Assembly: GCA_043745805.1 (NCBI GenBank)
Contig: JAYTSD010000004.1
Span: 94,543 to 158,542, forward strand
DNA length: 64,000 nucleotides
Source: Fibrobacteria bacterium
GTDB taxonomy: Bacteria; Fibrobacterota; Fibrobacteria; UBA11236
Reading direction: 5' to 3'
The notes beneath the pieces are model-generated. The model did not search any database. It was given only the letters and a program-made list of their open reading frames with translations, and had not been told where the DNA came from. This document shows positions 10,080 to 25,006 of this stretch, piece by piece (within the stretch, counting starts at the first letter, position 1; every line of letters starts with the position of its first letter). Position numbers and translations under genes: made by a program.

Positions 10080-10581
10080 TTTTATAACCCTTCTTTGAAA
10101 ATGTAAACGCTATAGGTTTTGTAAAACTAATAAGGTTTGCGAGATATATTATAAGAGACTAATTACACACACCTAATCAAGGTGCAGAGTTGAGCGTTTT
10201 TTCAAAAAAGAAGACCAGAGTTTTAAGAACTCATCTAGGGATATTGGCTCCCCCTTTGTCGATAAATCCCAGGCATCAACAGCTCCCGATCCCGATGGCA
10301 CTCTGATAGAAACCCCACCATCCTCAGACATAGTGACTACAGCAGGCTTACCGCCAACAGAAAAGAATCTTTTACCCTTTGAAAGCGACCTAGGATCCAA
10401 CAGTTCCGGCATATGAAATAATTTAACTCCTGCGTTAGAAAAATGCTGAATTTGGGCTCGAATTGTTTAGGTACAGTGTTTCCTAGGATATGTGGAGAAT
10501 GTGCTAAAAGAAGGTGCCTTATGCCCCTCTCTCGCACAGAATAAAAATGCATCTAAACAAAAAACCAGTAATTGTTTTGTC

Positions 10582-11009
10582 GTTTCAACTCACGCACTCA
10601 TAAAGAGCGCGACATAAGTCCACTAAAGGCGGCTTCGATGTATTCCTGTTTCAATCCATGCGCTCGTGAAGAGCGCGACTTGGCTGTTACCTGTTTTTCC
10701 ACCGTGTTGGTCGGTTTCAATCCACGCGCTCGTGAAGAGCGCGACACGAACAATAGGCGTACCAACCAGACGCCTTTTGGTTTCAATCCACGCGCTCGTG
10801 AAGAGCGCGACGATGTCTTTAACTGTCTTCAGCGCCGCTTTATTGGTTTCAATCCACGCGCTCGTGAAGAGCGCGACTACCTTTCCATTTATATCAGCCG
10901 ACAATTCAAAAGTTTCAATCCACGCGCTCGTGAAGAGCGCGACTTTATGCTTTCTGGTTTAACATCCGAGAGATCGAGTTTCAATCCACGCGCTCGTGAA
11001 GAGCGCGAC
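10582..11009 (-). CRISPR. Type I-C CRISPR array: 7 repeats of 32 bp and 6 spacers of 34 nt. Transcribed repeat GTCGCGCTCTTCACGAGCGCGTGGATTGAAAC. The leader-distal repeat (10582-10613) is degenerate.
   Basis: Exact repeats at 10714, 10780, 10846, 10912 and 10978, plus a 1-mismatch copy at 10648 and a degenerate copy at 10582. The internal hairpin GCGCTC/GAGCGC and the GTGGATTGAAAC 3' end match the I-C repeat family. Spacers are uniformly 34 nt. Confidence 0.92.
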
Positions 11010-11176
11010 TCCTTACTTCTAAGCTTAGTTAATACCTGCACTTAGAAGTGTAGATCCGCTGACCTACGTTAAATATGTAAGAGATTATTTCAAAGAACTC
11101 AAGAGTGCCCAAATGCGCTCTGATTTCGGTGCGCTAAGCCTATGTGATTTTGTGTCAGCTTTAGGTTAGCGATTGA
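11010..11176 (-). promoter_or_regulatory. CRISPR leader (between cas2 and the first repeat)
   Basis: Non-coding 167 bp between the cas2 stop and the leader-proximal repeat. The degenerate repeat lies at the opposite end of the array, as expected. Confidence 0.5.
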
Positions 11177-11467
11177 TTAAATGATCAAAGGACCATGAAG
11201 ATCTGCTGTAGGCTTTGAACCAAAATGTTCGACTCGACGTTCCCAATTACTTCCTAGATAATAAAATCGAAGACTATCTTCCTCCGCCTTATAAATCGCA
11301 AGAAGTTTACTTTTTAATAGTTCCCATTTTGCAGGTTCAACTTCGCATTCAAAAACCGAAAATTGTGCGCGTTGTCCATAATCTTCGCAACATTTCGCAA
11401 TACGACGTAACCTACGTTTACCACCTAAAGATTCGGTTTTAACGTCATAGGTTACCAGCACTAACAT
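11177..11467 (-). CDS. cas2: CRISPR-associated endoribonuclease Cas2
   Basis: 96 aa with MLVLVTYDV...FSVFECEV motifs. Confidence 0.9.
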   Translation of the reverse strand: MLVLVTYDVKTESLGGKRRLRRIAKCCEDYGQRAQFSVFECEVEPAKWELLKSKLLAIYKAEEDSLRFYYLGSNWERRVEHFGSKPTADLHGPLII

Positions 11468-11470
11468 TTA

Positions 11471-12499
11471 TTATCTCCAAATATAAGGTGGATAATAATC
11501 CATATCTCCGCGAATAGTTCGAGCTAGCAATAATGCCTGCACATGAAATAAAAGACCCATCTCCACTTTTTCATTTAAGAACGGATGAGTGATTTCTTCA
11601 CTTTTTCTTTTTTGATAAGCAATAAGAACTGCTTTTCGTGTACCGCTTTCCATTTCAACAGCACCATTTGGCGAAATAATAAAACCATTACTATCAACTT
11701 GTTTGAGGTTAACCAAGCTAAGTGCTAATCGATCTGCAAGACAAGCACGAAACTCTTCAATAATGTCTAAAGCTAAACTAGCGCGACCGGGTCTATCCGT
11801 ATGAAGAAATCCTGCCGATGGATCAAGTCCCACACCTTGTAAAGCAGATTCAATATCATTAGTAACAAGCGCATATATAAAAGACAGTAAACAATTTATT
11901 CTATCAAGAGGAGGTCTTCGGTTACGTCCTGAAAAATTAAATTCTGGTTTTTGATGAAGTATAAGGTGATTAAAAACACTAAAATATACGCTTGCGGATT
12001 CCCCTTCAATACCGCGAGCTATCTCAATATCCTGACAACTTTTAACTTTTTGCAGATAATGTCCAAGTCGAGTAATTGCGATTTGAATTTTTCCTTCATC
12101 TTCAAATTCGTGATTGCGTAAGGCACGCATTAACACGGCGCGAGAATTTCCAATCTTTGCAGCCAATAAAGCTTGAACATAGCGAATGCTCTGTTGCTTA
12201 TCATCGGCAATACGATATTGATGTTTGCGAAGCAAAATATTTCCACTTTGCGGCCCCACAACACGACCAAGAAACCTTCCTCTTTCAGTAAAGAAGGCTA
12301 ATCCAACATTATTTTCAGCACAAAATCCAATAGCGAAAGGAGAGATTAAAACATTTCCAAAACACACTACATTCCAAATACCGTGAATAGGAATTTGAAA
12401 AACTTTTTTACCATCGTGTTCAATAATTAAGGTCTCGCGTTGTTTATGCACATAACTGCCTTGGGTCGTTATGTATAAGGTATTGAGATGCTTTTTCAT
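11471..12499 (-). CDS. cas1: CRISPR-associated integrase Cas1
   Basis: 342 aa in Cas1 context, with a 4-nt overlap with cas4. Confidence 0.9.
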   Translation of the reverse strand: MKKHLNTLYITTQGSYVHKQRETLIIEHDGKKVFQIPIHGIWNVVCFGNVLISPFAIGFCAENNVGLAFFTERGRFLGRVVGPQSGNILLRKHQYRIADDKQQSIRYVQALLAAKIGNSRAVLMRALRNHEFEDEGKIQIAITRLGHYLQKVKSCQDIEIARGIEGESASVYFSVFNHLILHQKPEFNFSGRNRRPPLDRINCLLSFIYALVTNDIESALQGVGLDPSAGFLHTDRPGRASLALDIIEEFRACLADRLALSLVNLKQVDSNGFIISPNGAVEMESGTRKAVLIAYQKRKSEEITHPFLNEKVEMGLLFHVQALLLARTIRGDMDYYPPYIWR

Positions 12500-13158
12500 A
12501 AATCAAATAGGGACTGAAAATATTTTGATGAATGTGATATTGGATTCCAAGGCAGGCAAATATTTTGCAGCGAACATGCTTTACATTTTTCTCCAGGTTC
12601 AGCGGGTGGTGTTTTCCCTTCGCGAAATAAAACATGTAAGCGTTCAGCTGTTTCAAACGTTTTTTGACGCAATTCAGCATCAAGTAATACAATTTGTCTT
12701 CGCCGAGTTTGATGATAAAAAAGGTCTGCTTCTGTTAATGAAATATTAAACGCTTCTTCTAAACAAATTGCTTGAGCGCAGAGTTGTACATTGTCGTAAG
12801 GACCAGTTTTAACCTTTCCACGTTTATATTCTACAGGCCTTGGGAGCCAAAGACCCGTTAGTCCAAACTTTTCCAAACCGATTCCATGGATAGTATCTTT
12901 TGTGGTTCGACGAAATTCAACCACATCCGCTTTACCACTTACTTTTAGCTGCTGACTTTTGATAGGAAGAGATCGCGTAACATACAAGTCACTGCGTTTT
13001 TCATCCTTACCACTATCAACTTTTTCGTGCAAAATTTGACCTTGTATTGTGAACGTATTTTCCTCCCATGCGCGCTCCAAATGGATCAATGCGCATTGAC
13101 GCTCGCAGAACAAAATGTGCTGGAGCGCCGAAATGGGGAGGAAATCTTCTTCGTTCAT
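12496..13158 (-). CDS. cas4: CRISPR-associated exonuclease Cas4 (RecB-like nuclease with a C-terminal Cys cluster)
   Basis: 220 aa with a CERQCALIHLE N-terminal Cys and a C-terminal CKACSLQNIC Fe-S motif. Confidence 0.85.
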   Translation of the reverse strand: MNEEDFLPISALQHILFCERQCALIHLERAWEENTFTIQGQILHEKVDSGKDEKRSDLYVTRSLPIKSQQLKVSGKADVVEFRRTTKDTIHGIGLEKFGLTGLWLPRPVEYKRGKVKTGPYDNVQLCAQAICLEEAFNISLTEADLFYHQTRRRQIVLLDAELRQKTFETAERLHVLFREGKTPPAEPGEKCKACSLQNICLPWNPISHSSKYFQSLFDL

Positions 13159-13191
13159 TATGGCTATTGCTATTTTAAATAGCGATATTGA

Positions 13192-14133
13192 TCACGCCAT
13201 ACGAATTAATTTTACACCATTTCCCAAGTCTCTATTTGATCCTACATCTGGAAGTGGTTTACCATCAAATAGAACGTCATAATCATTAAATGATCTAGCT
13301 GGGCCAGTACTTCCTTCTCTGCGCTTGACTTCAGCACGTTCAAATAAAGTATGAGCGGGAGAATTACCAAGGGCAGAACTGTGTTCAAATACAAGGAGTG
13401 GTCGTGTGGACATAAGGCCTCTTGCAGCCGATCGATCATGCTCAAACATATTTTTTAGTGCTTCCCAAAAAACTGTAAGATCATCTTCAGTAAATTCTGT
13501 TTGTGCTGCGAGATGCGCCGAGATGAATCCATGTGAGCGATAAAGCCCATACGGAATTGTAAATTTACGACCCATAGTACGATTATCTCCACCTTGCTTT
13601 TCAGCATCAGCTTCAGTAGTTACCGCCATACGAGTGATGCTATGCTCTAACACTACAACTGGCTCGATTGAACGAGCAAAAGTCATTTGAATAGGTCCAC
13701 GAACTTGTCCAGCATTTGCACCTGTACTCATAACAGCACCGAATGTTCGAATATCAAAATATGTTTTGCACATACGTGATCGGCCCTTGCTTATTTCGCT
13801 TCCTTGAGCATCACCTTTACTATTACGTTTCTTCCCGTCTTTAATATCCTGAGGTTCTTTCTCAAGGTCTATTCCAAGATCAGCGTAGGCACCAGCTATT
13901 TTTTGATTTAATATAGCCTTCTCTTTTACGAAAATATCATACGTTGGTTTACCTTCATTTGTAAGTGAAACAAAATTCCGCACCTTGCGCTTGAGGCAAA
14001 CATCTGTTACTAGCCCCATTCCTGTTTCTGCATCTATACGAGGAAGATTACCGGCATCTGGATCGCCATTTGGATTTCCATCTTGCACATCGAATAATAA
14101 AATGAAATCGTAACGTTTGTTAATAGTGCTCAT
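13192..14133 (-). CDS. cas7: Cas7 (Csd2) type I-C backbone subunit
   Basis: [28 protein letters not shown] signature of Csd2. Confidence 0.9.
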
Positions 14134-14139
14134 GTTTAA

Positions 14140-15870
14140 TTATCCTTCTTTTGTTGGTTGTTCTGGTTTTTCAGATTTTGTGAAAAATGCTTGACGTTGA
14201 TGATAATAACCAATCGCAAAACGCGCTTGATCTTCCATAGATAGATGACTTGGCATATCTGGAAGCATTCCTCCAAAAATTTCCCCAAGGCGTTTTTCAT
14301 GTGCGCCTCGAAATGCATGATTTTCCAATTTCGCTAAATGATGATTCTTTAGTTTTAGTAGTTGCGGAAAAACACTTACTGGACTAGAACTTGCTGCTCC
14401 ATAAAAGCGGTCACGAATAGTAGCATTAATTCCTGGTTGAGCATCTTCTTGAATTTTTTCGAGCGCAGCAAAAAGTCTTCCTAGCCTATACCCGGGGTTA
14501 GTATTAGTGGAATCAAGTGCCATAGTTATCTCCTGCTGTATTGAATTGAGTTGTATGTTTCGTTTTCGATTAAGGCAACCTTTCAAAAGAGATGCCTGTG
14601 TACGTTTCACTTCACGGTTGGCCCTGATTCGGCGAACAACTTGTTGTAAAAGTGTTGTAGGAAATGGTCCACCTGTTAGGATAGAGCGCATGACGTTTCC
14701 CGCCAGATTTGGAGGAATGTTTTCAATTTTATTTTGAAGCGCTATATCAGAAAGCAAGAAGAAGAGAGCGTAACTTCCTTTGTCTCCATTGGGCTTCACA
14801 ATTTCTAAGTCTTTAAAATATTTTTGAAGATTTTCAGAGAAATCAGCTACTGTACCAGTATGCCAAAACCGTACAGATACTCTAGCCGCATTGGGCGAAA
14901 GTCCTAAAACAAAAAAACGTGCGTCTTCATTTGGAAGACTAGATCCTGTATAGGGACTTTTCAAAAGCGTTTCAACTGCTTTTATATCTCTATCGGGATC
15001 ATCTTTACTCACACTCCAGTAAGAAAAAAAATCTTCCTCTAGCGATGTTTTTTTGTCGGACCAAAATACTGTAGTAGCATCGCCAACCTGAACTTTGTTT
15101 TTCGAATCGCGACTGAGTAGCATATTTAGAGCTGTCGTATAGGCAAAAGTTGCAAAGTTACTGATCGGAGCGTTCTTATTTTGTTCTTTTCCATAGGAAC
15201 GGAAAGCCGATAAATTAAAGGAACTTATTGCTCCTCCTGCTGGTTGCGCATCTCGAACACCTTTGATCGCTGGATGGAGTTGCGATATAGGCGATTTCTT
15301 TCCCAATATTAGGCAAATGCCTTCGCTCGATGAATTAATCGAAACGATACTAGAAGCGAGGGTTTCGCAAATTGAAGTTGATTCTGATCCGTCAATTCTA
15401 AATACAACATTAGAATTGGCATTAACCTCGCACATCTCTTTCCAGATGTTAGCATCTTTGGAACTGGCTTCGATTTGTAAGATAGGATTAGAATCGAGAA
15501 ATCGAATAAGGGCATCGCGATCAGGATGATCAATAAGATTGGTAATCAAACGATTTCGAAAAGCTAAATGTCGAGATGCAGCATCATCTCTTCCGCGGGG
15601 GTTGGCTCCAAGCGCATATTCAATATTATCCCATAAGAGATTAGCTTTTATACCTGATGCTCTTTTTTCTCCGGCTGGAACTAAGAAAGAACGAGTTCGC
15701 CTTTTTTTTCCTTCCCCTTCTCTAGTATCTTCTAATGCTATAAATTTTCCGTCACGATTTATTACTACTACAAATGAGATATCTTTCCATTCAAAACCTT
15801 CGGGTGCGATTCCGCTTTCTGGATCTAATGCCTTTCTTTGATAATAATCATAAAGAGCTTGCAGAATCAT
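14140..15870 (-). CDS. cas8c: Cas8c (Csd1) type I-C large subunit
   Basis: MILQALYDYYQR N-terminus typical of Csd1. 576 aa. Confidence 0.9.
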   Translation of the reverse strand: MILQALYDYYQRKALDPESGIAPEGFEWKDISFVVVINRDGKFIALEDTREGEGKKRRTRSFLVPAGEKRASGIKANLLWDNIEYALGANPRGRDDAASRHLAFRNRLITNLIDHPDRDALIRFLDSNPILQIEASSKDANIWKEMCEVNANSNVVFRIDGSESTSICETLASSIVSINSSSEGICLILGKKSPISQLHPAIKGVRDAQPAGGAISSFNLSAFRSYGKEQNKNAPISNFATFAYTTALNMLLSRDSKNKVQVGDATTVFWSDKKTSLEEDFFSYWSVSKDDPDRDIKAVETLLKSPYTGSSLPNEDARFFVLGLSPNAARVSVRFWHTGTVADFSENLQKYFKDLEIVKPNGDKGSYALFFLLSDIALQNKIENIPPNLAGNVMRSILTGGPFPTTLLQQVVRRIRANREVKRTQASLLKGCLNRKRNIQLNSIQQEITMALDSTNTNPGYRLGRLFAALEKIQEDAQPGINATIRDRFYGAASSSPVSVFPQLLKLKNHHLAKLENHAFRGAHEKRLGEIFGGMLPDMPSHLSMEDQARFAIGYYHQRQAFFTKSEKPEQPTKEG

Positions 15871-16592
15871 TTGCGCACCTCATCGCTGTCCCACGACGGT
15901 AGATTGATTATTCCATTTTTTATGGTTGGTCGAAAAAAAGTAGGTTTGGGATCGGTTGCATCTGAAAAATCCATATCATATAACATGAATCCTAAGTCGC
16001 GTGATTCTGCTATTGGTGGATTCTTAGCTTGCTCTTCAGCTAGATTAGCTTCGCTTAATAAACGGAAAGCACAACTAAATTCACGACAACCTAAATAAGG
16101 TTGATTAAAACATTGTCCTTTAGTGGCTCTGCGCTCAAACATTGCATTGTATTTACCTGGATTCTCATCTTTAGCCCAATCAATACGCTCTTCAACCTCC
16201 ACCAATTCTTCTGAAACTGGGTTCATTATTTTAGGACGCTTCGGTGGTGGTATAAATTCCATTTCAGCATAGAGACGGTAAGCGATATCTCGAAGAAAAA
16301 GCCCTGCACGTTGTTGCCGTTCATCTTCAATTAGAATACCATCACTTCCTGAAGAAGCTATTTTACCGATTTCGTTACGACGCACAGATATCCATCGAAT
16401 TGGATTTAATACTTCAATTTTATTAATTCTCCATACTATTGCGGGCTTCCAAAATATAGCTTCGAAAATAGCACGCGCTGCCGATGGAGTAATAACATCA
16501 TAACTGACGCGCTCTACTTTCATTTCTGGGCGCGTGAAGCAAGCATAGTCGCCTCGAACTTCTAAACAAAATGATCTATTTTTGTAAATCAA
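15867..16592 (-). CDS. cas5: Cas5d (type I-C Cas5 with pre-crRNA processing role)
   Basis: LEVRGDYACFTRPEMKVERVSYDVITPSAARAIFEAIFWKP signature. ATGA overlap with cas8c. Confidence 0.9.
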   Translation of the reverse strand: MIYKNRSFCLEVRGDYACFTRPEMKVERVSYDVITPSAARAIFEAIFWKPAIVWRINKIEVLNPIRWISVRRNEIGKIASSGSDGILIEDERQQRAGLFLRDIAYRLYAEMEFIPPPKRPKIMNPVSEELVEVEERIDWAKDENPGKYNAMFERRATKGQCFNQPYLGCREFSCAFRLLSEANLAEEQAKNPPIAESRDLGFMLYDMDFSDATDPKPTFFRPTIKNGIINLPSWDSDEVRK

Positions 16593-16613
16593 AACAAGGA
16601 CCGTCCTTTCTTT

Positions 16614-18899
16614 TCAATAAATAAATTCCGTACCATCATACACTGGCCCATCAATGCGTAAGCCAAAAGTGTAGTCGTACAAGCCGGAAACACATTGTGC
16701 CCATAATCCAAGAGCACCTTCTGGGCCTATCACTTCCATGATGACCCCTTGATCTCGAAGTTTTTGCCAAACAATTTGAGGCACATTAACTGTGAATCGC
16801 TGAAGACGCCGCATCCGCTCCCGAGTCGGACCATATTTTGTGACTTCTTCTATAATTTCCTGACTAGTAAATTTACTAGTCGCATGCCACACCACAATTC
16901 CACGATACCCTTGCTCATCTATAAGCTGATACCACAAGGCAGCAGACCGAAATTGAAACTGACATCGTCCTGCATCCACTATCAAATGCTGTTTGAATAT
17001 ATCTTTACCAAAATCGTTAACACGTCCATAAAAAAAATGGAAATAGCGTTGAAAAGCTTCCGGTGCTAAACGATGAGCCAGTTCTGGTGCAGTGCGCATC
17101 ACTTCTGCGCCAGCATCTTCCCCTTTACGCAAAAGACCTTGCGGGGATGGCTTTGGTGGATGAAAGATTACTACGTCACCCAGTTTCCCATCCAAATTTA
17201 ATCGACCTTCTCGATTGCATCGTCCAGCAGCTTGAGCGATACTATCAAGTCCGGCCATTGCCCGATAGACAACAGGAAAGTCAATATCCACTCCCGCTTC
17301 GACAAGTTGGGTACTTATGACTCGTAAAGGATTTCCTTTTTGCAAATCGTCTTTAATCTGAGCCACCACCTGTGAGCGATGAACTCCACACATAAGTGCG
17401 GATAAATGCACTGGTGTTTCTCCAGTATGTTTCTGGACAGCTTCCCAAAGGTCACGGCAATCTTGCCGTCGATTAACAATGCACAATACTTGTGAGTGCT
17501 TCGCAAGGGATTGTGACAAAGTCGCCCAATCCACTCGTTCATCACTGTATACACGAAGGGCTACTCGCCTAAGAGTGTGCGCCAAATTAATAGGATCGCG
17601 AATGATTTCACGTACATTATTTATACCATTAAATTTAACTTTGCCGGATCCAATATCCCCAATCAAAGCAGGCTGAGTAGCTGTACACAATACAACCGTG
17701 CATCCAAAATGAGCCACGAGACCTTTTAAGACCGAAAGAGTAGGAGCTAGTTTTTCCGGAGGTAACATCTGCGCTTCGTCAAGGATAATGACTGAATTTG
17801 CAAGATTATGAAGCTTTCTACATCGACTAGTTCGTGCTGCAAATAATGACTCAAATAATTGCACATTAGTAGTAACTACAATAGGTACATCCCAATTCTC
17901 AGATGAAAGTCGTCCTTTTGGTGTCTCTCGATCTAAATCGAGATTACTATGATGCTCCAGAACATTTACTGATCCAAAAATCTTTATGAGCTCTTGTGCG
18001 GTCTGCTCAATTATACTTGTAAATGGAATTGCTACTACTATACGACGCTTATTATGCTTCAGAGAATGTTCTAATGCAAAGGCCACAGAAGAAAGAGTTT
18101 TCCCACCACCTGTTGGCACTGTTAGAGAAAAGAATCCTGATTCCAGCTTTCCTGCCCCTATACAATCTTCTAATACTTGTCTGCGAATTTTGTTTACAGG
18201 AAGATCAAAGAGTTTTTTTTCTTGAAGTTCAATATTCCTTTCTGCATTCCTAATATTAAAAACATCTAAAAGCGCCTTTAGGTTAGTGGTAGAACCACGC
18301 AAAGCCGATTTTTTCGGATCCATAAAGGCTTCTGTGTCTAAAAAATCGGCATCAACTAATGAGGAAAAAAGCATTCTAATCCATAAATGTGCATGCTCAG
18401 GATCAGGAGGTGGCCTGGATTTGGGCATTGCTGCATTTAAAATTTCTTCGGGTATCGGAGCTTTTTTTGTTTCTTCTAAATGCTGTTTATCATTTAATCT
18501 CTCTTCAAGCCCTCGACCTTCTGCCTCCGCTTTTAACCAATCAGGGAGACCCGCATGATGCCCTGCAATTAAATACGCCAAGATTTTCCCTACTCCCCCG
18601 TGACGTGATACAGCATGAATGGCACCCGCTGTACTATGATCAACCTTGCCTGGTGTATTTTCCAAATGAGCGTCTGGATTATAGCCGCTAGCAGAACGAA
18701 TATAGGTTTGAAAATCAGATTTATACTTTCCTAAGTCATGCCAAATTCCAGCTAAGAACGCCCATTCAGCAGAATCAAATGTTGATGCAAAGTTTTCTGC
18801 TAATGTTGCTACTGCTTGAAGATGTTCTTCCAAAGAATGCTGGATCCAATTCCCATTCTCATCTTTCCGAACATGAGCTAAATAATTTGACATACCCAA
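16614..18899 (-). CDS. cas3: Cas3 HD-nuclease/helicase
   Basis: N-terminal HD motifs (HSLEEHL, WHDLGKY), Walker A VPTGGGKT and a DEAQ box. 761 aa. Confidence 0.9.
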   Translation of the reverse strand: MGMSNYLAHVRKDENGNWIQHSLEEHLQAVATLAENFASTFDSAEWAFLAGIWHDLGKYKSDFQTYIRSASGYNPDAHLENTPGKVDHSTAGAIHAVSRHGGVGKILAYLIAGHHAGLPDWLKAEAEGRGLEERLNDKQHLEETKKAPIPEEILNAAMPKSRPPPDPEHAHLWIRMLFSSLVDADFLDTEAFMDPKKSALRGSTTNLKALLDVFNIRNAERNIELQEKKLFDLPVNKIRRQVLEDCIGAGKLESGFFSLTVPTGGGKTLSSVAFALEHSLKHNKRRIVVAIPFTSIIEQTAQELIKIFGSVNVLEHHSNLDLDRETPKGRLSSENWDVPIVVTTNVQLFESLFAARTSRCRKLHNLANSVIILDEAQMLPPEKLAPTLSVLKGLVAHFGCTVVLCTATQPALIGDIGSGKVKFNGINNVREIIRDPINLAHTLRRVALRVYSDERVDWATLSQSLAKHSQVLCIVNRRQDCRDLWEAVQKHTGETPVHLSALMCGVHRSQVVAQIKDDLQKGNPLRVISTQLVEAGVDIDFPVVYRAMAGLDSIAQAAGRCNREGRLNLDGKLGDVVIFHPPKPSPQGLLRKGEDAGAEVMRTAPELAHRLAPEAFQRYFHFFYGRVNDFGKDIFKQHLIVDAGRCQFQFRSAALWYQLIDEQGYRGIVVWHATSKFTSQEIIEEVTKYGPTRERMRRLQRFTVNVPQIVWQKLRDQGVIMEVIGPEGALGLWAQCVSGLYDYTFGLRIDGPVYDGTEFIY

Positions 18900-18944
18900 A
18901 ACCTAACTCCCCACACTCTCAAAACCTGATAGTGAAACAAAAAA

Positions 18945-19913
18945 TCAAACATATTTTTTCGCCGCCGCCTTCAACGTTCCCAACACTTTCGCTCGCAAAA
19001 AAAGCGGATCTACTACTTCCACCTCATCCCCATACCGCAGAATATCCATTAACAATTCCCTTTCATCCCCAAAAGGAAGTTTCAAACGATAACTTCCATC
19101 AGCCAACCACTCTCCAATTTGCTTTGGATGCCATTGCTCTTGCGATACAAATCTCGCTGCTGTTTTATGAAAAATTAATTCTGCTATATGCTTGGCCTTA
19201 CCTGCAAAAATTCCGTACGACTCGGTAAAGTGATCCTGCAAAATATTTTTATCCTCAGAGCGAGCTTTGCTTTTTAAAACTTCTACTCCAGTAATTCGAT
19301 TTAAAGCAAATGATCGAAGACCCTGCCGAAAATGACACCATGCGTCCAAATACCAATTGTCGCGATAACGAACTAAACTTTGTGGACATACCGTGCGCAG
19401 GGTAGCGGTTCCATCGCTACCTCTTATATAATTCAACTTTAATTGCTTACGAAGGAGTACACCTTCGGCGATAGATTTAAAAATACCCTCGCCAATCTTT
19501 CTTGTGCCCATAGGCAAAAGACGTATGCGATTTTCCCAATTGGAAAGTGGAATTTCATTTTCATTTAATAGCTTGGTAAGTTTTTCACGCAAAGGAGCAA
19601 ATTGTTCTTGCAGTATATCGGCGTGCATTTCGCGTAAAATATTTTCTAAGGAAATTAAGGCGGCTAATTCCTCGCCACTAAACCATAAACCAGGTAACTC
19701 ATAAGTTTCCGCATCTGCAAGATCATAACGATACCCCTTATATTTCCTATCGCACAGAATGGGCGCGGCCAGCTTGTCGCGCATGAATTTAACTACACGA
19801 TAAAAAGTAGCCGAAGAGCAATGCAATTCTTTTTGTATTCGCATTGCGGGCGTAGCATATCGATGTTGCATTAAATAGCGATGCAAAGCATAAACCATTT
19901 CAAATCGTACCAT
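18945..19913 (-). CDS. WYL-domain transcriptional regulator (N-terminal HTH, central WYL domain), 45 bp upstream of cas3
   Basis: HTH-like N-terminus (SSATFYRVVKFMRDKL). A literal DNWYLDAW motif within a WYL-like domain. Same strand as the cas operon. Confidence 0.7.
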   Translation of the reverse strand: MVRFEMVYALHRYLMQHRYATPAMRIQKELHCSSATFYRVVKFMRDKLAAPILCDRKYKGYRYDLADAETYELPGLWFSGEELAALISLENILREMHADILQEQFAPLREKLTKLLNENEIPLSNWENRIRLLPMGTRKIGEGIFKSIAEGVLLRKQLKLNYIRGSDGTATLRTVCPQSLVRYRDNWYLDAWCHFRQGLRSFALNRITGVEVLKSKARSEDKNILQDHFTESYGIFAGKAKHIAELIFHKTAARFVSQEQWHPKQIGEWLADGSYRLKLPFGDERELLMDILRYGDEVEVVDPLFLRAKVLGTLKAAAKKYV

Positions 19914-19966
19914 GAACCGGCCCTCATCTAAGGAATATGAATGCTAGTAACTAATTGAAATATCAA

Positions 19967-20029
19967 CTTCATACATTTTGATTACAAATGAATTATTTGC
20001 TTGCGTGTTACTCGGCACTTCGACAGGCT
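19967..20029. repeat. 63-bp direct repeat, copy A (1 mismatch to copy B), upstream of the WYL-cas operon
   Basis: CTTCATACATTTTGATTACAAAT[G/A]AATTATTTGCTTGCGTGTTACTCGGCACTTCGACAGGCT is present at 19967-20029 and 24598-24660. Confidence 0.85.
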
Positions 20030-20039
20030 TGCATGTCCC

Positions 20040-20918
20040 TTATTCGGCTTCTTCGTAGTAGTAGGAATAGTCAATTCCCTTCATGAACATTTCCCGGTCA
20101 TGAATTTTATCGGTTAATGACTTGGTGATCAATTTTTTCAGCATGGAGTTATCCGTCACACTGAGTCTCACGGCTTCCAGATATTTATTTTTATTGATCT
20201 TGCTCCAGTCAACACAGCGGGCATGTTTTTTCTTTAGCATCAAATCCAGCCAGATCCTTGCCGTTCTGCCATTGCCTTCCATGAAAGGGTGGGCAATATT
20301 CATTTCGGTATATTTGTTGATGACATTTTCAATCGAATCTTCCAGCATTTTTTCTATTGCAACTAGCGTAGTTGGCAGAAACCCGGCTGCGGCAAATTGA
20401 AAACCACCTTTGCTGATATTTTTTGTGCGAATTAAACCTGCAAAATCATACAAGCCGCCAAAAAGATAGGCGTGTATTTGCTGCAAACCCTTAACTGTAC
20501 CCACTTCAATACTGTCGATAAAAGAACTTTCAAAAAGAGCATAGGCTTTTGATTTGCTCTTGCCGTCGATCGTTTCTTCGCTGTATAAAAACCACTCAAT
20601 AAAGCGATTTGACTTAGTGTTGGGAAGGTTTTTTGCGAGCGTTATTACACCATCGGAATCAATCACATCGGAAAGCCGTTTTTTTCCATCAGGTGCCAAC
20701 AATTTCAACTGGTTAGTGCCACTACCCAGTTGAAGGTTTTCTTTTTTCAGCTTTGCTTTTAAATATTTCCAGTAATTACGGTTTTTTTCGTAATTTTCCT
20801 GGTCATTTAATACACCCACAATGTCCAGTACGGAAAACCACCAACGAGACCCTGTATCGTTCCACACCGCGCGGACTTCTCGGTCATTAAAAAACCGGAT
20901 GGAAATTTTCTCTTTCAT
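20040..20918 (-). CDS. Fic/Doc-family protein (AMPylation/phosphocholination-type toxin fold) with a Bro-N/DinD-like N-terminal domain
   Basis: Perfect Fic motif HPFMEGNGRTAR. N-terminus RFFNDREVRAVWNDTGSRWWFSVLDIVGVL resembles the Bro-N fold. Confidence 0.8.
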   Translation of the reverse strand: MKEKISIRFFNDREVRAVWNDTGSRWWFSVLDIVGVLNDQENYEKNRNYWKYLKAKLKKENLQLGSGTNQLKLLAPDGKKRLSDVIDSDGVITLAKNLPNTKSNRFIEWFLYSEETIDGKSKSKAYALFESSFIDSIEVGTVKGLQQIHAYLFGGLYDFAGLIRTKNISKGGFQFAAAGFLPTTLVAIEKMLEDSIENVINKYTEMNIAHPFMEGNGRTARIWLDLMLKKKHARCVDWSKINKNKYLEAVRLSVTDNSMLKKLITKSLTDKIHDREMFMKGIDYSYYYEEAE

Positions 20919-21745
20919 GATTTGCCACCCGTTTCGAGCAATTTTCGTTCTGCTATCCGCTCGCGCACCTCAATGAGTGCGTTGTGCAGTTTTTGTTCAA
21001 GCAATTCTTTAGGTGGAAGATTTGTCCAATATTCGGCAACCATTATGTTGTCTTTTTGCATATTGAGCAGTTCCACAAATGCAAAGGAATTTCCCAATTC
21101 CAGGATGAAAAGCTCCAATTCTTTTAGAATTGCATTTTCTAATTCATTTTCAAGGTAGCCTTCTTTCAGACCCAGAAAATCGAGAAAATAAGGATCTTTA
21201 AAATTTCCAGTAAGGTGATTCGCATTCGCTAAGGTTAGTTTTGTATCCGCAATTTCGGTTCGTTCAAATGCTTTACGTTCTATTTGATCCTTTAAAACCC
21301 GCTTGCTCCAGTGTAATTCACTCGCCATGCGGGCATAAAAAAAACGAGCTTCAGGAGGTTTTAAAGGAATTAGCAATAAAAAATGCGACTAGGTTAATTG
21401 TCGTGCCAGTGGAACGACAATCTCGAAATCAGAAAAAACCTCCGCAAACTGCATCATTCGACGAAGATTTTTCGCCTCAAAGCTTTTGCCATAAAGCAAG
21501 ATTAGCTCCTGCGCCAGAGACTCCACAACCTGTTTGCCGTATTCGGCCCGCTCACCCTGTAAAATAGATTCGTTGATCCGTTTACCCACATGCCAATAGG
21601 TTGTTGTAAGAGCATTGTTGACCGCTACAATCGCCTGACGACGACCTTGATCAATAAGCACCTTTAAATCGTGCACCAAATCACCATTGACTATTACAAA
21701 GTTTTGCGCGCTTATTGCAGAGTCAGCTTTTATTTCGTCATTCAT
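20915..21745 (-). pseudogene. DUF1016/YhcG-like (PDDEXK nuclease-family) gene interrupted by one in-frame TAG (21389-21391) at a conserved Trp position
   Basis: ORFs 21389-21745 and 20915-21376 are in the same frame. The junction reads ARQLT*SHFLLL where family members have LTWSH. Otherwise full length. Confidence 0.7.
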
Positions 21746-21758
21746 AATTTAATCCTAA

Positions 21759-22357
21759 TTATCCATTAGTTTCCGGCTTAGGAAAGGTGAGCAGCATTTC
21801 ACGGTAGTAGTTGTATTGCTTTTTGCGGGCTATAAGCTCGGTGAAGGTGTCCAAAATGCGGACGATTTCGGATTGGATTTCGAGGGATTTTTTCGGGTTG
21901 TCGGGGCATGGAACAGGGACTCGGTACTTGTCAGTATCTGGAGTTGCAATCTGTGGCATTTGCATTTTGCTGCCGAGATTCTGAAAGTACGGTTCATTCA
22001 GTTTAAGAAAATGATATAAATACTTGATATGGATAAACTCATTTTGTGAATGATATGACCACATTTCATTCTTGTGCGAAAATGGTTTATCGTAATATTC
22101 AAACTCAATATTACCACGAGATTTAACGACGATAGAAGGCTCTCTATTTATATCCTTCTCTGGAATATCGTTAAAATCGAAAAAGGAAATTGTTTTGCCA
22201 CCTGCAAAAATTTTTAATGGGGCATCATCTTTGTGTAAGACCTTCATTTCACTAGCGGTAATTTTTGTGCCTTTAGTACGCACAAGCACCCCCCCAAGGC
22301 CTTCCACTCTACCGCCACACCTTCAAGCAGTGCTTTCATTGGATTCTGATTACTCAT
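21759..22357 (-). pseudogene. hsdS: Type I R-M specificity subunit HsdS, single-TRD form, frameshifted at a poly-C7 tract (22288-22294)
   Basis: Conserved HsdS start MSNQNPMKALLEGVAVEWKALG is in one frame. The downstream TRD ORF (MEGLGGVLVRTKG...) is in another frame across a C7 run. Confidence 0.6.
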
Positions 22358-23210
22358 GCTTGCCTCTATGCATTTTTTTAACCCCTAGGTCATCGGTAAG
22401 CAAACGCATTTGGTGTATGGCTGTACGGTTCAATAGCTTTATTCTTTCTGATTGTGGCAATCCCTGCTGTATTAAATGAGCATTCAGGTTTTCAAGGTTG
22501 GCAAGACACACCAGATGTGAGACATTTGCATAATCTCGAATGTTACCATTTTTACCATGGTTCTCATCACGCCATTGCTTTGCGGTTTTCCCGAACAGTG
22601 CCATATTCAGCAGATCAGCCTCTGAAGCATACACAAGATTCATTTGCTGATTGGTTAATTCCGCCGGGATCAGGTTTTCTTTGATGGCATCGGTGTGAAT
22701 TCGGTAATTGATTTTAGTGAGTTGGCGTTTGAAATCCCAACCAAGTTTTTTCTGCTCCTCTTCTTTGAGTCGCTGGAACTCTTTAATGAGATAAAATTTC
22801 AGTTCCGGAGAAATCCAGGTAGCAAATTCAAAAGCGATATCCTTATGAGCATAGGTACCGCCATAGCGTCCAGCCTTGGAAATAAGTCCTATCGCATTTG
22901 TTTTTTCAATCCATTGTTTTGCAGAGAGAACATAGCCATTACTGCCACTTTCATTTTTAATGTAACTGAATTCCGTTAGATTAAAATTCGGGTTGCTCAC
23001 GCGTTCCCAAATCCCCATAAATTCAATAGTGTAGCGGGTACTAAGCCAATGAGAAATAACAACACCGGTATGCTCAGCGTTCTTATGTTTGGCCAAATCC
23101 GTCAGCGAGATATAATCTTCAGCCCCCTGATTAAAAAAGGTCACATCACTGCCGATTATTTCAATTTTTTTGTTTTTATCCATTATAGAAGCTTCCTTAA
23201 CGGCTTCCAC
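22350..23210 (-). CDS. KilA-N domain protein (inserted within the hsdS region)
   Basis: About 280 aa, with an architecture typical of KilA-N proteins found in type I R-M loci. The likely true start is MDKNKK at 23183. The C-terminus ...GKHE* runs into the conserved hsdS 5' segment. Confidence 0.55.
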   Translation of the reverse strand: MEAVKEASIMDKNKKIEIIGSDVTFFNQGAEDYISLTDLAKHKNAEHTGVVISHWLSTRYTIEFMGIWERVSNPNFNLTEFSYIKNESGSNGYVLSAKQWIEKTNAIGLISKAGRYGGTYAHKDIAFEFATWISPELKFYLIKEFQRLKEEEQKKLGWDFKRQLTKINYRIHTDAIKENLIPAELTNQQMNLVYASEADLLNMALFGKTAKQWRDENHGKNGNIRDYANVSHLVCLANLENLNAHLIQQGLPQSERIKLLNRTAIHQMRLLTDDLGVKKMHRGKHE

Positions 23211-23260
23211 TCCACCGTCGCCCCATCAAGCAGTCTCTCCATTAAATTCTGATTACTCAT
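23183..23260 (-). pseudogene. Second, truncated copy of the hsdS conserved 5' segment ([25 protein letters not shown])
   Basis: About 67-bp similarity between 22300-22366 and 23204-23270, with the last 25 bp identical. Confidence 0.45.
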
Positions 23261-24002
23261 GCTTGCCTCCTAAATTCCCCTCTTGAGGGGTGGCAGGCTG
23301 CAAGACTGACGGGGTGGATGCATTAAGCATGTAAAAGACAGAAGAATCCACCCCGCCCTTCGGGCACCGCTCAAGAGGGGAATTTTTTTGGGAACTAAGT
23401 TCAGCAGAATTCTTAAGCGTACTCGCTACGGCGTTTATTTCATCTTCACGTATTTTAATAGCTGCAACAACTTTTTCTTTTACAGAAGAGATAAACTTCT
23501 TAACTTCCAAATCAGTGAAATGAATAACTTCTAATTGCAGGCCGCGCAAAATTGCTTCGCGTTGTGCGTCGTACTCCTGTTTAAAATCGTGACTACTCCC
23601 ATCTATTTCAAAGACCAGTCCCAATTCGGGAATAAAAAAATCGACGATGAAATTTCCAATAATGACTTGCCTGTCTATATCATAGCCCAAGGATTTTTTG
23701 TATTTGAACGCTTGCCAGAATAGTACTTCTGCCAGATTTCCAGCTTTTCGAAGCTCTCTGGATCTTTGAGTGAGTTTTTTATTTTTTGGGAGCGCTAAGT
23801 AGTTGAATATCCGCCTCTCAGGAGGGGAATTAAGAAAATGCGACTCTATGTATTTATTCCCCTCCATTGGAGGGGTGGCCGACAGGGCGGGGTGGTAGAA
23901 ATTGGTTTTAAATGTTTGGGTTATCGACCCAAGAATCTTTGGATATACCGTATAGAACTTCTGGATGGTTTCGACGAGGTGGTTAAAATTTAGGATGTTC
24001 AT
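23253..24002 (-). CDS. DUF559 (Vsr-like endonuclease fold) protein with probably non-native N- and C-terminal extensions
   Basis: Core [23 protein letters not shown]...EIDGSSHD...VIHFTDLEV matches DUF559. The ORF tail overlaps a GC-rich hairpin cluster. Confidence 0.55.
23277..23393. repeat. Nested GC-rich inverted repeats (TCCCCTCTTGAGGGGTG ... CACCGCTCAAGAGGGGA, with inner GGGGTGGAT...ATCCACCCC). A related motif CCCCTCCATTGGAGGGGTGGC occurs at 23865-23885.
   Basis: Read directly. These are GC-rich palindromic motifs on both sides of the DUF559 core in otherwise AT-rich DNA. Confidence 0.5.
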
Positions 24003-24408
24003 CCTTCACTGCCATTTTCAATCTCAGCAACAATGGCATCAATATCCGCGCGGAGTTTGTCAATTTTCTTCACTGTGATTTGTATCTCTGAATTAAGTTT
24101 TGTGATATTTATCAATTCGCGTGTGTCTTCGGCAACCACATAGGAGCTCACAGATAGATTGTATTCATTGGCTTCAATGGCATCAAAGTCAACCGATTTC
24201 GCCATATACTCAATATCGACTTTACGATCGAAGGCATCCATGATCTGAGCAATATGATCATCGGTGAGGGTGTTGTTATTTGTCTCTTTTTGAAGAGCGT
24301 GCCGAGTACATATTGCTTAAAATCCCATCCATCGATGGAGCCACGCACGTCGTTTGCAATTTTCCAAATTTGGGATTGTAATTCGGCTCGTTGTGCGGCA
24401 CTTGTCAT
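23999..24408 (-). pseudogene. hsdM: Type I R-M methyltransferase HsdM remnant: about 35-aa N-terminus, frameshift, then about 60-aa C-terminus, with >1 kb deleted internally
   Basis: [39 protein letters not shown] (HsdM N-terminus) and [10 protein letters not shown]...EIENG (HsdM C-terminus) lie in different frames only about 400 bp apart. Confidence 0.65.
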
Positions 24409-24597
24409 TTGTAAAACTCCAGTTTATATAAGAAAATAAATATAGCCTCGTTCCAAGTTGGTTTTCAGGTTTTTCTTTCCGGCGCGTGGATTTATTCTTT
24501 TTGTTAGGAGCGGTTTTTGAAATAAATTTTTTAATGTGGAGCATTGCATGCAACTATCGCTTGCATGAATCGTTTATCATTCATTCACAAAAAAAAT

Positions 24598-24660
24598 CTT
24601 CATACATTTTGATTACAAATAAATTATTTGCTTGCGTGTTACTCGGCACTTCGACAGGCT
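24598..24660. repeat. 63-bp direct repeat, copy B
   Basis: See copy A. Confidence 0.85.
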
Positions 24661-24722
24661 CAGTGACCGAGCAACACGTTCGGGCATAGTGTATACTTCG
24701 GTCACTGAGCCTGTCGAAGTGA
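24647..24722. repeat. Perfect 24-bp-arm inverted repeat (CACTTCGACAGGCTCAGTGACCGA / TCGGTCACTGAGCCTGTCGAAGTG) with a 28-nt spacer. The left arm overlaps direct-repeat copy B. A third partial arm lies at 24847-24880.
   Basis: Read directly. No ORF covers it. Confidence 0.7.
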
Positions 24723-25006
24723 CCAAGATGCAACCGAAATGTTTACGTTCGCAAATTTTCGAATATGTAAGGGCGCTGTGAACGAACCCCACATGCATAT
24801 CGAAAGGGTAGACGAGGATCACGCGAGTTAACACGGTATTTCGTATCTCGGTCACTGAGCCTTTGTCGAAGTGAACGAAACGTGAGTGTTAAATCGTGAA
24901 GCCGAGGCTAGGGGAAGACTTTCCCCTTTATCAAGTAGCCATACATAACCAAGAAGAAAATTTCCCTGCTAGCCAAAACTTCGCTTTTATAGCATAATAT
25001 CAACTT

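Follow-up and report, generated by a model that had tools for sequence, protein, structure and literature searches.

We analyzed a Bro-N/Fic fusion gene in a 64,000-nucleotide stretch of DNA, referred to here as the window, from a Fibrobacteria bacterium (GenBank assembly GCA_043745805.1, contig JAYTSD010000004.1, positions 94,543 to 158,542). Sequence comparisons support the reading of its product as a Fic enzyme that looks catalytically competent and carries a Bro-N type domain at its N-terminus. We consider it probable that this protein is a stand-alone, self-inhibited class III Fic adenylyltransferase of the type represented by NmFic from Neisseria meningitidis, fused to an N-terminal domain of the winged-helix-like, DNA-binding Bro-N type. 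The gene is an ordinary further copy of an abundant, already catalogued family and a candidate for phage defense. It is also the last gene of a decayed type I restriction-modification (R-M) operon in which three passenger genes, encoding a DUF559 protein, a KilA-N protein and the Fic protein, are intact.

A first-pass annotation made from the letters of the window had described an open reading frame (ORF) with a perfect Fic catalytic motif, and this description was borne out. The motif, HPFMEGNGRTAR, matches the canonical HxFx(D/E)GNGRxxR signature of Fic/Fido AMP-transferases. We ran the profile search proposed in that annotation, and Pfam Fic (PF02661) matched residues 142-228 with 47.5 bits against a gathering score of 24 (E = 3.2e-12). 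The catalytic motif was present in 41 of the 42 family members checked, and a family alignment showed that the window's protein keeps every family-invariant residue. The start of the gene overlaps the upstream frame by 4 nt at the ATGA at 20915-20918, as had been described, and a purine-rich GGGTGG lies 8-13 nt 5' of the Fic ATG.

We assigned the protein to a Fic class by comparing it with characterized enzymes. The NCBIfam equivalog model for NmFic (NF046029) aligned with residues 116-290 over model positions 3-177 of 177, scoring 247 bits against a cut-off of 230. A phmmer search against PDB sequences returned NmFic chains with E-values of about 4e-59 and Enterococcus EfFic with an E-value of 3e-57 (residues 120-289). 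Identity to NmFic is 57%, and the alignment reaches the extreme C-terminus, where ...GIDYSYYYEE is paired with ...GIEQSYYYEG of NmFic. With an offset of 103, residues H210, R221, S285, Y286 and E289 correspond to H107, R118, S182, Y183 and E186 of NmFic. S285, Y286 and E289 are invariant across the family, and the family tail reads SYYYE(E/Q) in 41 of 42 members and SYHYEQ in the other. The Bro-N-fused members that we checked consistently depart from the SYYYEG ending of solo NmFic. Productive binding of ATP to NmFic is blocked by E186, which lies on the C-terminal helix, and the enzyme becomes active when E186 is changed to Gly (E186G) or the helix is removed (PMC3667792). The activity of NmFic on Tyr109 of GyrB is controlled by autoAMPylation of Y183 and by a tetramer-monomer equilibrium (PMC12894286). 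These alignments place the window's protein in class III, with its own predicted inhibitor carried within the chain.

The class assignment bears on two further claims of the first-pass annotation. It had reported that no cognate antitoxin ORF is present, and we found no adjacent antitoxin gene: a DUF1016 pseudogene lies upstream, and a repeat followed by a same-strand WYL regulator lies downstream. The absence is real, but it is not the puzzle it was taken for. Because a class III enzyme has its own inhibitory helix, here S285...E289 in the place of S182...E186 of NmFic, no separate antitoxin would be needed. Phosphocholine transfer, which had been offered as an alternative activity, is not favored, as the nearest characterized relatives, NmFic and EfFic, are AMP-transferases. 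By homology to these enzymes, we infer that the Bro-N/Fic protein has AMPylating activity.

The N-terminal region had been described as Bro-N-like rather than as a typical Fic N-domain, and our searches supported this view. The domain itself matched Pfam Bro-N (PF02498) over residues 14-111 with 24.7 bits (E = 3.8e-5), just below the gathering score of 25.6, and relatives of the domain that are 47-69% identical to it scored 27-41 bits, above that score. In an AlphaFold2 model (mean pLDDT 80.6, pTM 0.81), the region forms a beta3-alpha2-beta2-alpha2 domain. The PADLOC family PDC-S13 matched residues 1-110 with an E-value of 1.5e-26. A HMMER search with residues 1-114 over 1.84 billion representatives returned 4606 clusters at E<=1e-3. 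Conservation across the family is equal in the two domains, N-terminal and Fic, with a mean pairwise identity of 77% for each. A hint of DinD in the earlier description proved reasonable. The window's own N-domain gave no match to the DinD NCBIfam model, and a 285-aa relative joins an N-domain 47% identical to ours to a C-terminal region with a weak match to the DinD model. Another relative of the N-domain carries a HATPase_c_4 domain.

We found that the fusion protein belongs to a large and widely distributed family. The PADLOC-DB model PDLC04841 (PDC-S04, 292 positions) matched residues 1-292 of 292 with an E-value of 1.8e-155. At least 8000 relatives were found in a protein search, the best of them 91% identical, and the best 120 are nearly all about 290-300 aa long (three are shorter fragments) and 70-91% identical. 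A scan of one genome per species identified at least 585 species with a relative, at about 66-74% identity. The hosts include Bacteroidota, Pseudomonadota, Spirochaetota, Fibrobacterota, Bacillota, Lentisphaerota, Patescibacteria, Coriobacteriia and one Methanoplasma archaeon. Relatives carry the RefSeq/NCBI name "protein adenylyltransferase Fic". PDC families are candidates, defined by finding their genes embedded in BREX, DISARM and type I R-M loci, an approach named "guilt by embedding" (bioRxiv 10.1101/2024.01.29.577857).

The archaeal copy, in a metagenome-assembled genome (MAG) of Candidatus Methanoplasma porotermitis from termite gut (L083, 9953-10903), is a full-length Bro-N/Fic gene 66% identical to ours. 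It indicates horizontal transfer between domains of life, or possibly contamination of the bin. The Fic relatives nearest to ours, with 90% identity or more (L090, 13339-14196; L091, 5502-6359), lie in a small defense-like island that also holds a separate 285-aa Bro-N protein, a DUF5343/HEPN_Swt1 pair and DUF6602. Only a 65-aa ORF is left there at the position where hsdR would start.

Bro-N domains are typical of phages, and we considered a phage origin for the gene. No full-length match was present in 50,697 phage records, and one was found in 2.9 million viral contigs, so we rejected this origin. Among 72,556 plasmids, a 424-kb Treponema replicon held the one full-length match. The gene is cellular, not viral.

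The frame immediately upstream of the Fic gene encodes part of a DUF1016/YhcG protein. The first-pass annotation had read it as full length apart from one in-frame TAG. The TAG is present, but the frame is not full length, having lost a stretch of 77 residues that includes the PD-(D/E)xK core. Pfam DUF1016_N (PF17761) matched with an E-value of 4e-26 and again across the amber codon with 1.8e-8. YhcG_C matched over profile positions 4-46 of 157 only, in keeping with the loss of the core. The closest DUF1016 relatives are 345-350 aa long (76-80% identical over the shared parts), compared with 276 codons here. All five intact relatives that we aligned have a Trp at the amber column. The in-frame deletion has a "VE" microhomology at both ends, and the deleted segment holds ...DGEDFYLDLLF...VAIELK..., which is the D...ExK core. 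The DUF1016 gene is a doubly inactivated pseudogene. We also considered whether TAG might be a recoded sense codon and rejected this, since TAG ends seven of the 49 long ORFs in the window as an ordinary stop, replaces a conserved TGG here and lies in a gene that has also lost its core.

The pseudogene and the Fic gene had been proposed to form a two-gene toxin or defense module, in which translation of the two would be coupled through the ATGA. We surveyed the neighborhoods of the Fic gene in 80 species-level loci and several closer relatives, and we searched all of them for DUF1016 with tblastn and a hidden Markov model (HMM) built from 120 DUF1016 proteins. DUF1016 was found in two of the 80 loci and was adjacent to Fic in none. 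In one of the two (L068) the order is DUF1016-hsdS-Fic, with the genes of interest one gene apart, and in the other (L011) a DUF1016 fragment lies 6 kb away. The 4-nt overlap is real, but an ATGA overlap recurs with unrelated upstream genes, including a RhuM fragment (L003), hsdS (L087 and the P0007 locus) and hsdM (L008, L020 and L031). The Fic start codon is the point from which the DNA of different loci is similar. Type I R-M operons also house the closest intact relatives of the DUF1016 gene (L085 and L086), and the operon in L085 holds RhuM and KilA-N genes and no Fic gene. A module would be in keeping with the candidate status of both families in PADLOC (PDC-S04 and PDC-S02) and with their occurrence within one type I R-M operon in L068 and L086, the latter having Fic and Bro-N as separate genes. 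Against this stands a DUF1016 gene that here carries a nonsense codon and has no catalytic core, together with the survey results, and we regard the module as very improbable. Because DUF1016 is rare and never adjacent, the genes upstream of Fic are heterogeneous (hsdM, hsdS, RhuM fragments and unrelated genes) and DNA homology begins at the Fic start, we conclude that Fic and DUF1016 are not partners and are instead independent recurrent passengers of type I R-M operons.

The survey also revealed the setting in which the Fic gene recurs. About 16 of the 80 species loci have hsd genes nearby. Single-sequence and iterated HMM searches of these loci for hsd genes probably under-count divergent HsdR and HsdM proteins. 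Pfam scans of the immediate neighbors, used as a cross-check, gave similar proportions. Type I R-M operons with the Fic gene embedded in them were observed directly in L003, L008, L031, L045, L049, L059, L087, the P0007 locus and a Treponema RefSeq record. The recurring arrangement is that of a single-gene passenger, either hsdM-Fic-hsdS or hsdS-Fic-hsdR, and in the closest relatives hsdR begins 13 nt past the Fic stop codon. Among the Fic neighbors of 72 loci examined with Pfam, which are heterogeneous, the commonest are HsdM (seven upstream), HsdS (two upstream and five downstream) and HsdR (three to four downstream). Many other neighbors are defense genes, including HEPN, PIN, Abi, TIR, Mrr and KAP NTPase genes.

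One further locus has the two domains on separate genes. The type I R-M operon of Desulfamplus magnetovallimortis (L086, LT828541.1, 3193-4654) contains a solo 201-aa Fic gene that overlaps the separate 297-aa Bro-N gene right after it, and hsdS, DUF1016 and hsdR follow. This Fic and Bro-N pair may correspond to the fusion protein in split form.

We examined the operon to which the Fic gene belongs in the window (Table 1). The minus-strand order is hsdM remnant, DUF559, KilA-N, hsdS, DUF1016 pseudogene and Fic. The gene pair had been placed between CRISPR-Cas and R-M remnants, which is imprecise, as the pair itself forms the 3' end of the R-M remnant. The type I R-M system is dead because hsdM has lost residues 42-419, hsdS carries a frameshift and hsdR is missing; we found no match to hsdR anywhere in the window. 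Over its full length, the KilA-N protein shares 62% identity with its counterpart from a type I R-M operon of Marispirochaeta. The frame-shift point in hsdS is marked by a C7 run (G7 on the coding strand) at 22289-22295, right after the hsdS 5' end. This run could be a result of decay, a tract for phase variation or an error in the assembly of the MAG. Homology to the related loci L003, L087 and L001 ends about 8-14 nt past the Fic stop, where a 72-nt repeat begins. The two copies of this repeat are 93% identical, are the only two in the window and bracket the R-M remnant. A perfect 24-nt hairpin (24647-24670 and 24698-24721) continues from the right copy. This arrangement suggests a part for the 72-nt repeat element in the deletion of hsdR or in the insertion of the island. 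A promoter and terminator scan of 19850-24800 found sites no more numerous than in shuffled sequence.

Table 1. Features of the Bro-N/Fic gene and of the decayed type I R-M operon in the window
Feature	Position	Strand	Evidence
Bro-N/Fic fusion gene, intact, 292 aa	20040..20918	(-)	ORF list; PADLOC PDLC04841 full-length match
Bro-N domain, N-terminal, residues 1-112, beta3-alpha2-beta2-alpha2 winged-helix-like fold	20583..20918	(-)	
Class III (NmFic-type) FIC domain, residues 116-292	20043..20573	(-)	
Catalytic motif HPFMEGNGRTAR, residues 210-221, H210...R221 = NmFic H107...R118	20256..20291	(-)	Sequence and NmFic alignment
Putative inhibitory helix motif S285-Y-Y-Y-E289, C-terminal	20052..20066	(-)	Aligned to NmFic SYYYEG
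DUF1016/YhcG pseudogene, N-domain and C-terminal tail kept, nuclease core deleted	20915..21745	(-)	Pfam, PADLOC PDC-S02, alignment
Amber codon in place of the conserved Trp (TGG to TAG) in the (S/T)W(S/A)HF motif	21389..21391	(-)	Translation and five relatives
Junction of the 231-nt (77-codon) in-frame deletion, FAFVE/RQKR...EQVE/LLNMQ	21071..21076	(-)	Alignment with P0121, P0124, P0125, P0127, P0138
hsdS, single target-recognition-domain size, 5' end MSNQNPMKALLEGVAVEWKAL out of frame with body	21759..22366	(-)	Pfam Methylase_S; PADLOC Specificity_I PDLC03198 E 1.2e-78
KilA-N passenger (PADLOC PDC-S22), apparently intact	22350..23210	(-)	Pfam KilA-N E 7e-19; PDLC04962 E 2.5e-128
DUF559 passenger (Vsr-like endonuclease fold)	23253..24002	(-)	Pfam DUF559 E 6e-21
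hsdM remnant, a fusion of residues 1-41 and 420-513 from a 516-aa HsdM, methyltransferase core deleted	24014..24408	(-)	tblastn with L087 and L085 HsdM; Pfam HsdM_N and N6_Mtase end fragments
72-nt direct repeat, left copy, abuts Fic 3' flank	19958..20029	(+)	Repeat search
72-nt direct repeat, right copy, upstream of hsdM remnant	24589..24660	(+)	Repeat search

The left copy of the 72-nt repeat stops 14 nt into the hairpin arm, exactly at the hsdR start point of related loci. A 71-nt direct repeat (82% identical; 22296-22366 and 23199-23269) flanks the KilA-N gene, and both of its copies encode the hsdS 5' end (MSNQN...EWK.L) on the minus strand. The KilA-N gene lies between two hsdS starts as if it had arrived via recombination through the hsdS flanks of another operon. 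With the large internal deletion in hsdM and the 77-codon in-frame deletion in the DUF1016 gene, the pattern at the locus is one of repeated internal deletions and not of point decay scattered along it. The DUF559 ORF is 249 aa long and its domain spans just residues 76-182; a 21-nt inverted repeat (95% complementary; 23272-23292 and 23365-23385) lies inside the 3' end of this ORF, which may be a fusion or extended. Third-position GC is 0.40-0.45 in the three intact island genes, 0.23-0.30 in the adjacent cas genes and 0.31-0.40 in most others, which fits a foreign origin for the island. Downstream of Fic lies a complete-looking type I-C CRISPR-Cas system (10579-19913) with cas1, cas4, cas7, csd1/cas8c, cas5d and cas3. 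Its CRISPR array (10579-11009) has at least seven 32-nt repeats at a spacing of 66 nt, and a WYL/WCX/HTH regulator (18945-19913) adjoins cas3. The acetyl-CoA synthetase of the host shares about 80% identity with Fibrobacteres sequences, which points to Fibrobacterota as the probable source of the MAG.

The comparison with NmFic suggests how the fusion protein could work. In the resting state, the C-terminal helix would position E289 against productive ATP binding. A trigger would then displace the helix, as NmFic does through monomerization and cis-autoAMPylation of Y183. By analogy with NmFic, the active enzyme would AMPylate the ATPase-lid tyrosine of GyrB, of ParE or of both, and supercoiling and replication would halt. 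More speculatively, Bro-N might supply the trigger or the localization by binding DNA or a phage component, and the protein might act as a growth-arrest, abortive-infection type backup to restriction. The DUF1016 remnant would have no role in this scheme.

A number of observations weigh against the reading of the protein as a self-inhibited, NmFic-type adenylyltransferase in phage defense. The proposed GyrB/ParE target derives from a single comparison, the 57% identity to NmFic. EfFic is reported to be bifunctional, catalyzing both AMPylation and de-AMPylation, and with such a relative the net activity of the protein in vivo would be uncertain. The published motif, (S/T)xxxE(G/N), calls for G or N directly behind the inhibitory Glu, a position occupied by E in our protein and by E or Q in all 42 relatives checked. 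Expression from the decayed operon is predicted at most, the promoter scan being at chance level. Roughly 80% of the surveyed loci are not visibly within R-M operons. Both the defense role and the biochemical role of the Bro-N-fused subfamily are candidate assignments drawn from sequence. Finally, deletion of a PDC-S04 member in E. coli NILS69 gave no defense phenotype against the phages tested (10.1101/2024.12.20.629700); that member probably belongs to a different PDC-S04 sub-model.

The role of such an enzyme in the cell can be read in more than one way. A specific version of the defense role, which we hold as a tentative and somewhat doubtful idea, makes the protein a single-protein abortive-infection effector. 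Bro-N would sense a phage DNA structure or protein and either free the helix or break an inactive oligomer, GyrB and ParE would be AMPylated, and host and phage replication would be frozen together; the same sensor would be reused with DinD-like C-domains and in PDC-S13. A rival reading assigns the gene to growth control or addiction: its product would be a gyrase modulator that regulates itself, like NmFic, and the gene would spread horizontally, with R-M operons as a permissive landing site. NmFic has indeed been described as a growth regulator acting via GyrB and not as a defense protein (PMC12894286), and the identity of about 70% across phyla and in an archaeon indicates strong horizontal mobility. 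The loci outside recognizable R-M operons, about 80% of the total, and the lack of a phage phenotype in the E. coli NILS69 deletion (10.1101/2024.12.20.629700) also fit this rival. The recurrent tight operonic embedding with hsd genes speaks against it, as do the many defense-gene neighbors (the HEPN, PIN, Abi, TIR, Mrr and KAP NTPase genes) and the fusion of Bro-N to other C-terminal modules, which is expected of a sensor-effector design. We judge growth control to be unlikely as the main role of the gene.

The Fic gene of the window might alternatively be a silent relic, intact by chance and unexpressed after the collapse of its operon. Its surroundings lend this idea some weight: hsdM, hsdS, hsdR and the DUF1016 gene are all inactivated or missing, and promoter signal over 19850-24800 does not rise above chance. 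The upstream DUF1016 frame also stops prematurely, and therefore translational coupling via the overlap is lost. The coding sequence nevertheless retains all family-invariant residues, the GGGTGG upstream of the Fic ATG is in place, and the KilA-N and DUF559 genes are intact as well, which suggests selective retention. We consider a silent relic quite unlikely, and the self-inhibited, NmFic-type adenylyltransferase with a Bro-N domain is the reading that we carry into the comparisons below.

We compared the fusion protein to known Fic proteins and to other proteins with a Bro-N domain. NmFic (NMB0255; PDB 2G03, 3S6A, 3SE5 and 5CGL) is a class III AMP-transferase with a single domain and 191 aa. 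The window's protein differs from it in the additional 112-aa N-terminal Bro-N domain and in having E/Q, not G, after the inhibitory Glu; control by oligomerization and a GyrB target would be carried over to the fusion from NmFic. EfFic from Enterococcus faecalis (PDB 5NV5 and 6EP0) has the class III FIC domain in common with our protein and is without Bro-N. Solo relatives are common on Enterococcus plasmids. The class I toxin-antitoxin pairs FicT/FicA and VbhT/VbhA share the FIC fold and likely the same target class, GyrB and ParE. Their inhibitory helix comes from a separate antitoxin gene, whereas that of the window's protein appears to be intramolecular, and similarity to class I Fic proteins (VbhT and EcFicT) is weak, with E-values of about 1e-9 to 1e-12. 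The class II protein SoFic, an anti-phage system, is likewise a single-gene Fic-domain protein listed among defense systems. It has an N-terminal inhibitory helix and 361 aa, and the similarity is marginal (PADLOC SoFic, E = 3.7e-5, motif region only). Bro-N/KilA-C proteins of the phage antirepressor type, DinD-like proteins and PDC-S13 proteins share the N-terminal domain family, and the C-terminal effector of our protein is instead a Fic enzyme. We found no structural difference from PADLOC PDC-S04 (PDLC04841), whose members have the same habit of being single genes embedded in type I R-M operons. PDC-S04 is a candidate class that also holds solo Fic sub-models.

These comparisons indicate where the interest of the gene lies. 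The window's gene itself adds little, being another copy, 91% identical to its nearest relative, of an abundant catalogued family. Its locus shows a type I R-M operon decaying while embedded passenger genes stay intact. Few passengers of type I R-M operons are commoner than the Bro-N-fused class III Fic proteins, which have spread across phyla and into archaea and whose function is at the candidate stage. The family bears on whether AMPylation of gyrase and topoisomerase IV serves as an immune effector and on what Bro-N senses. If the protein is a single-protein abortive-infection effector, topoisomerase AMPylation would gain a defined immune role and the widespread Bro-N domain would gain a sensing function.

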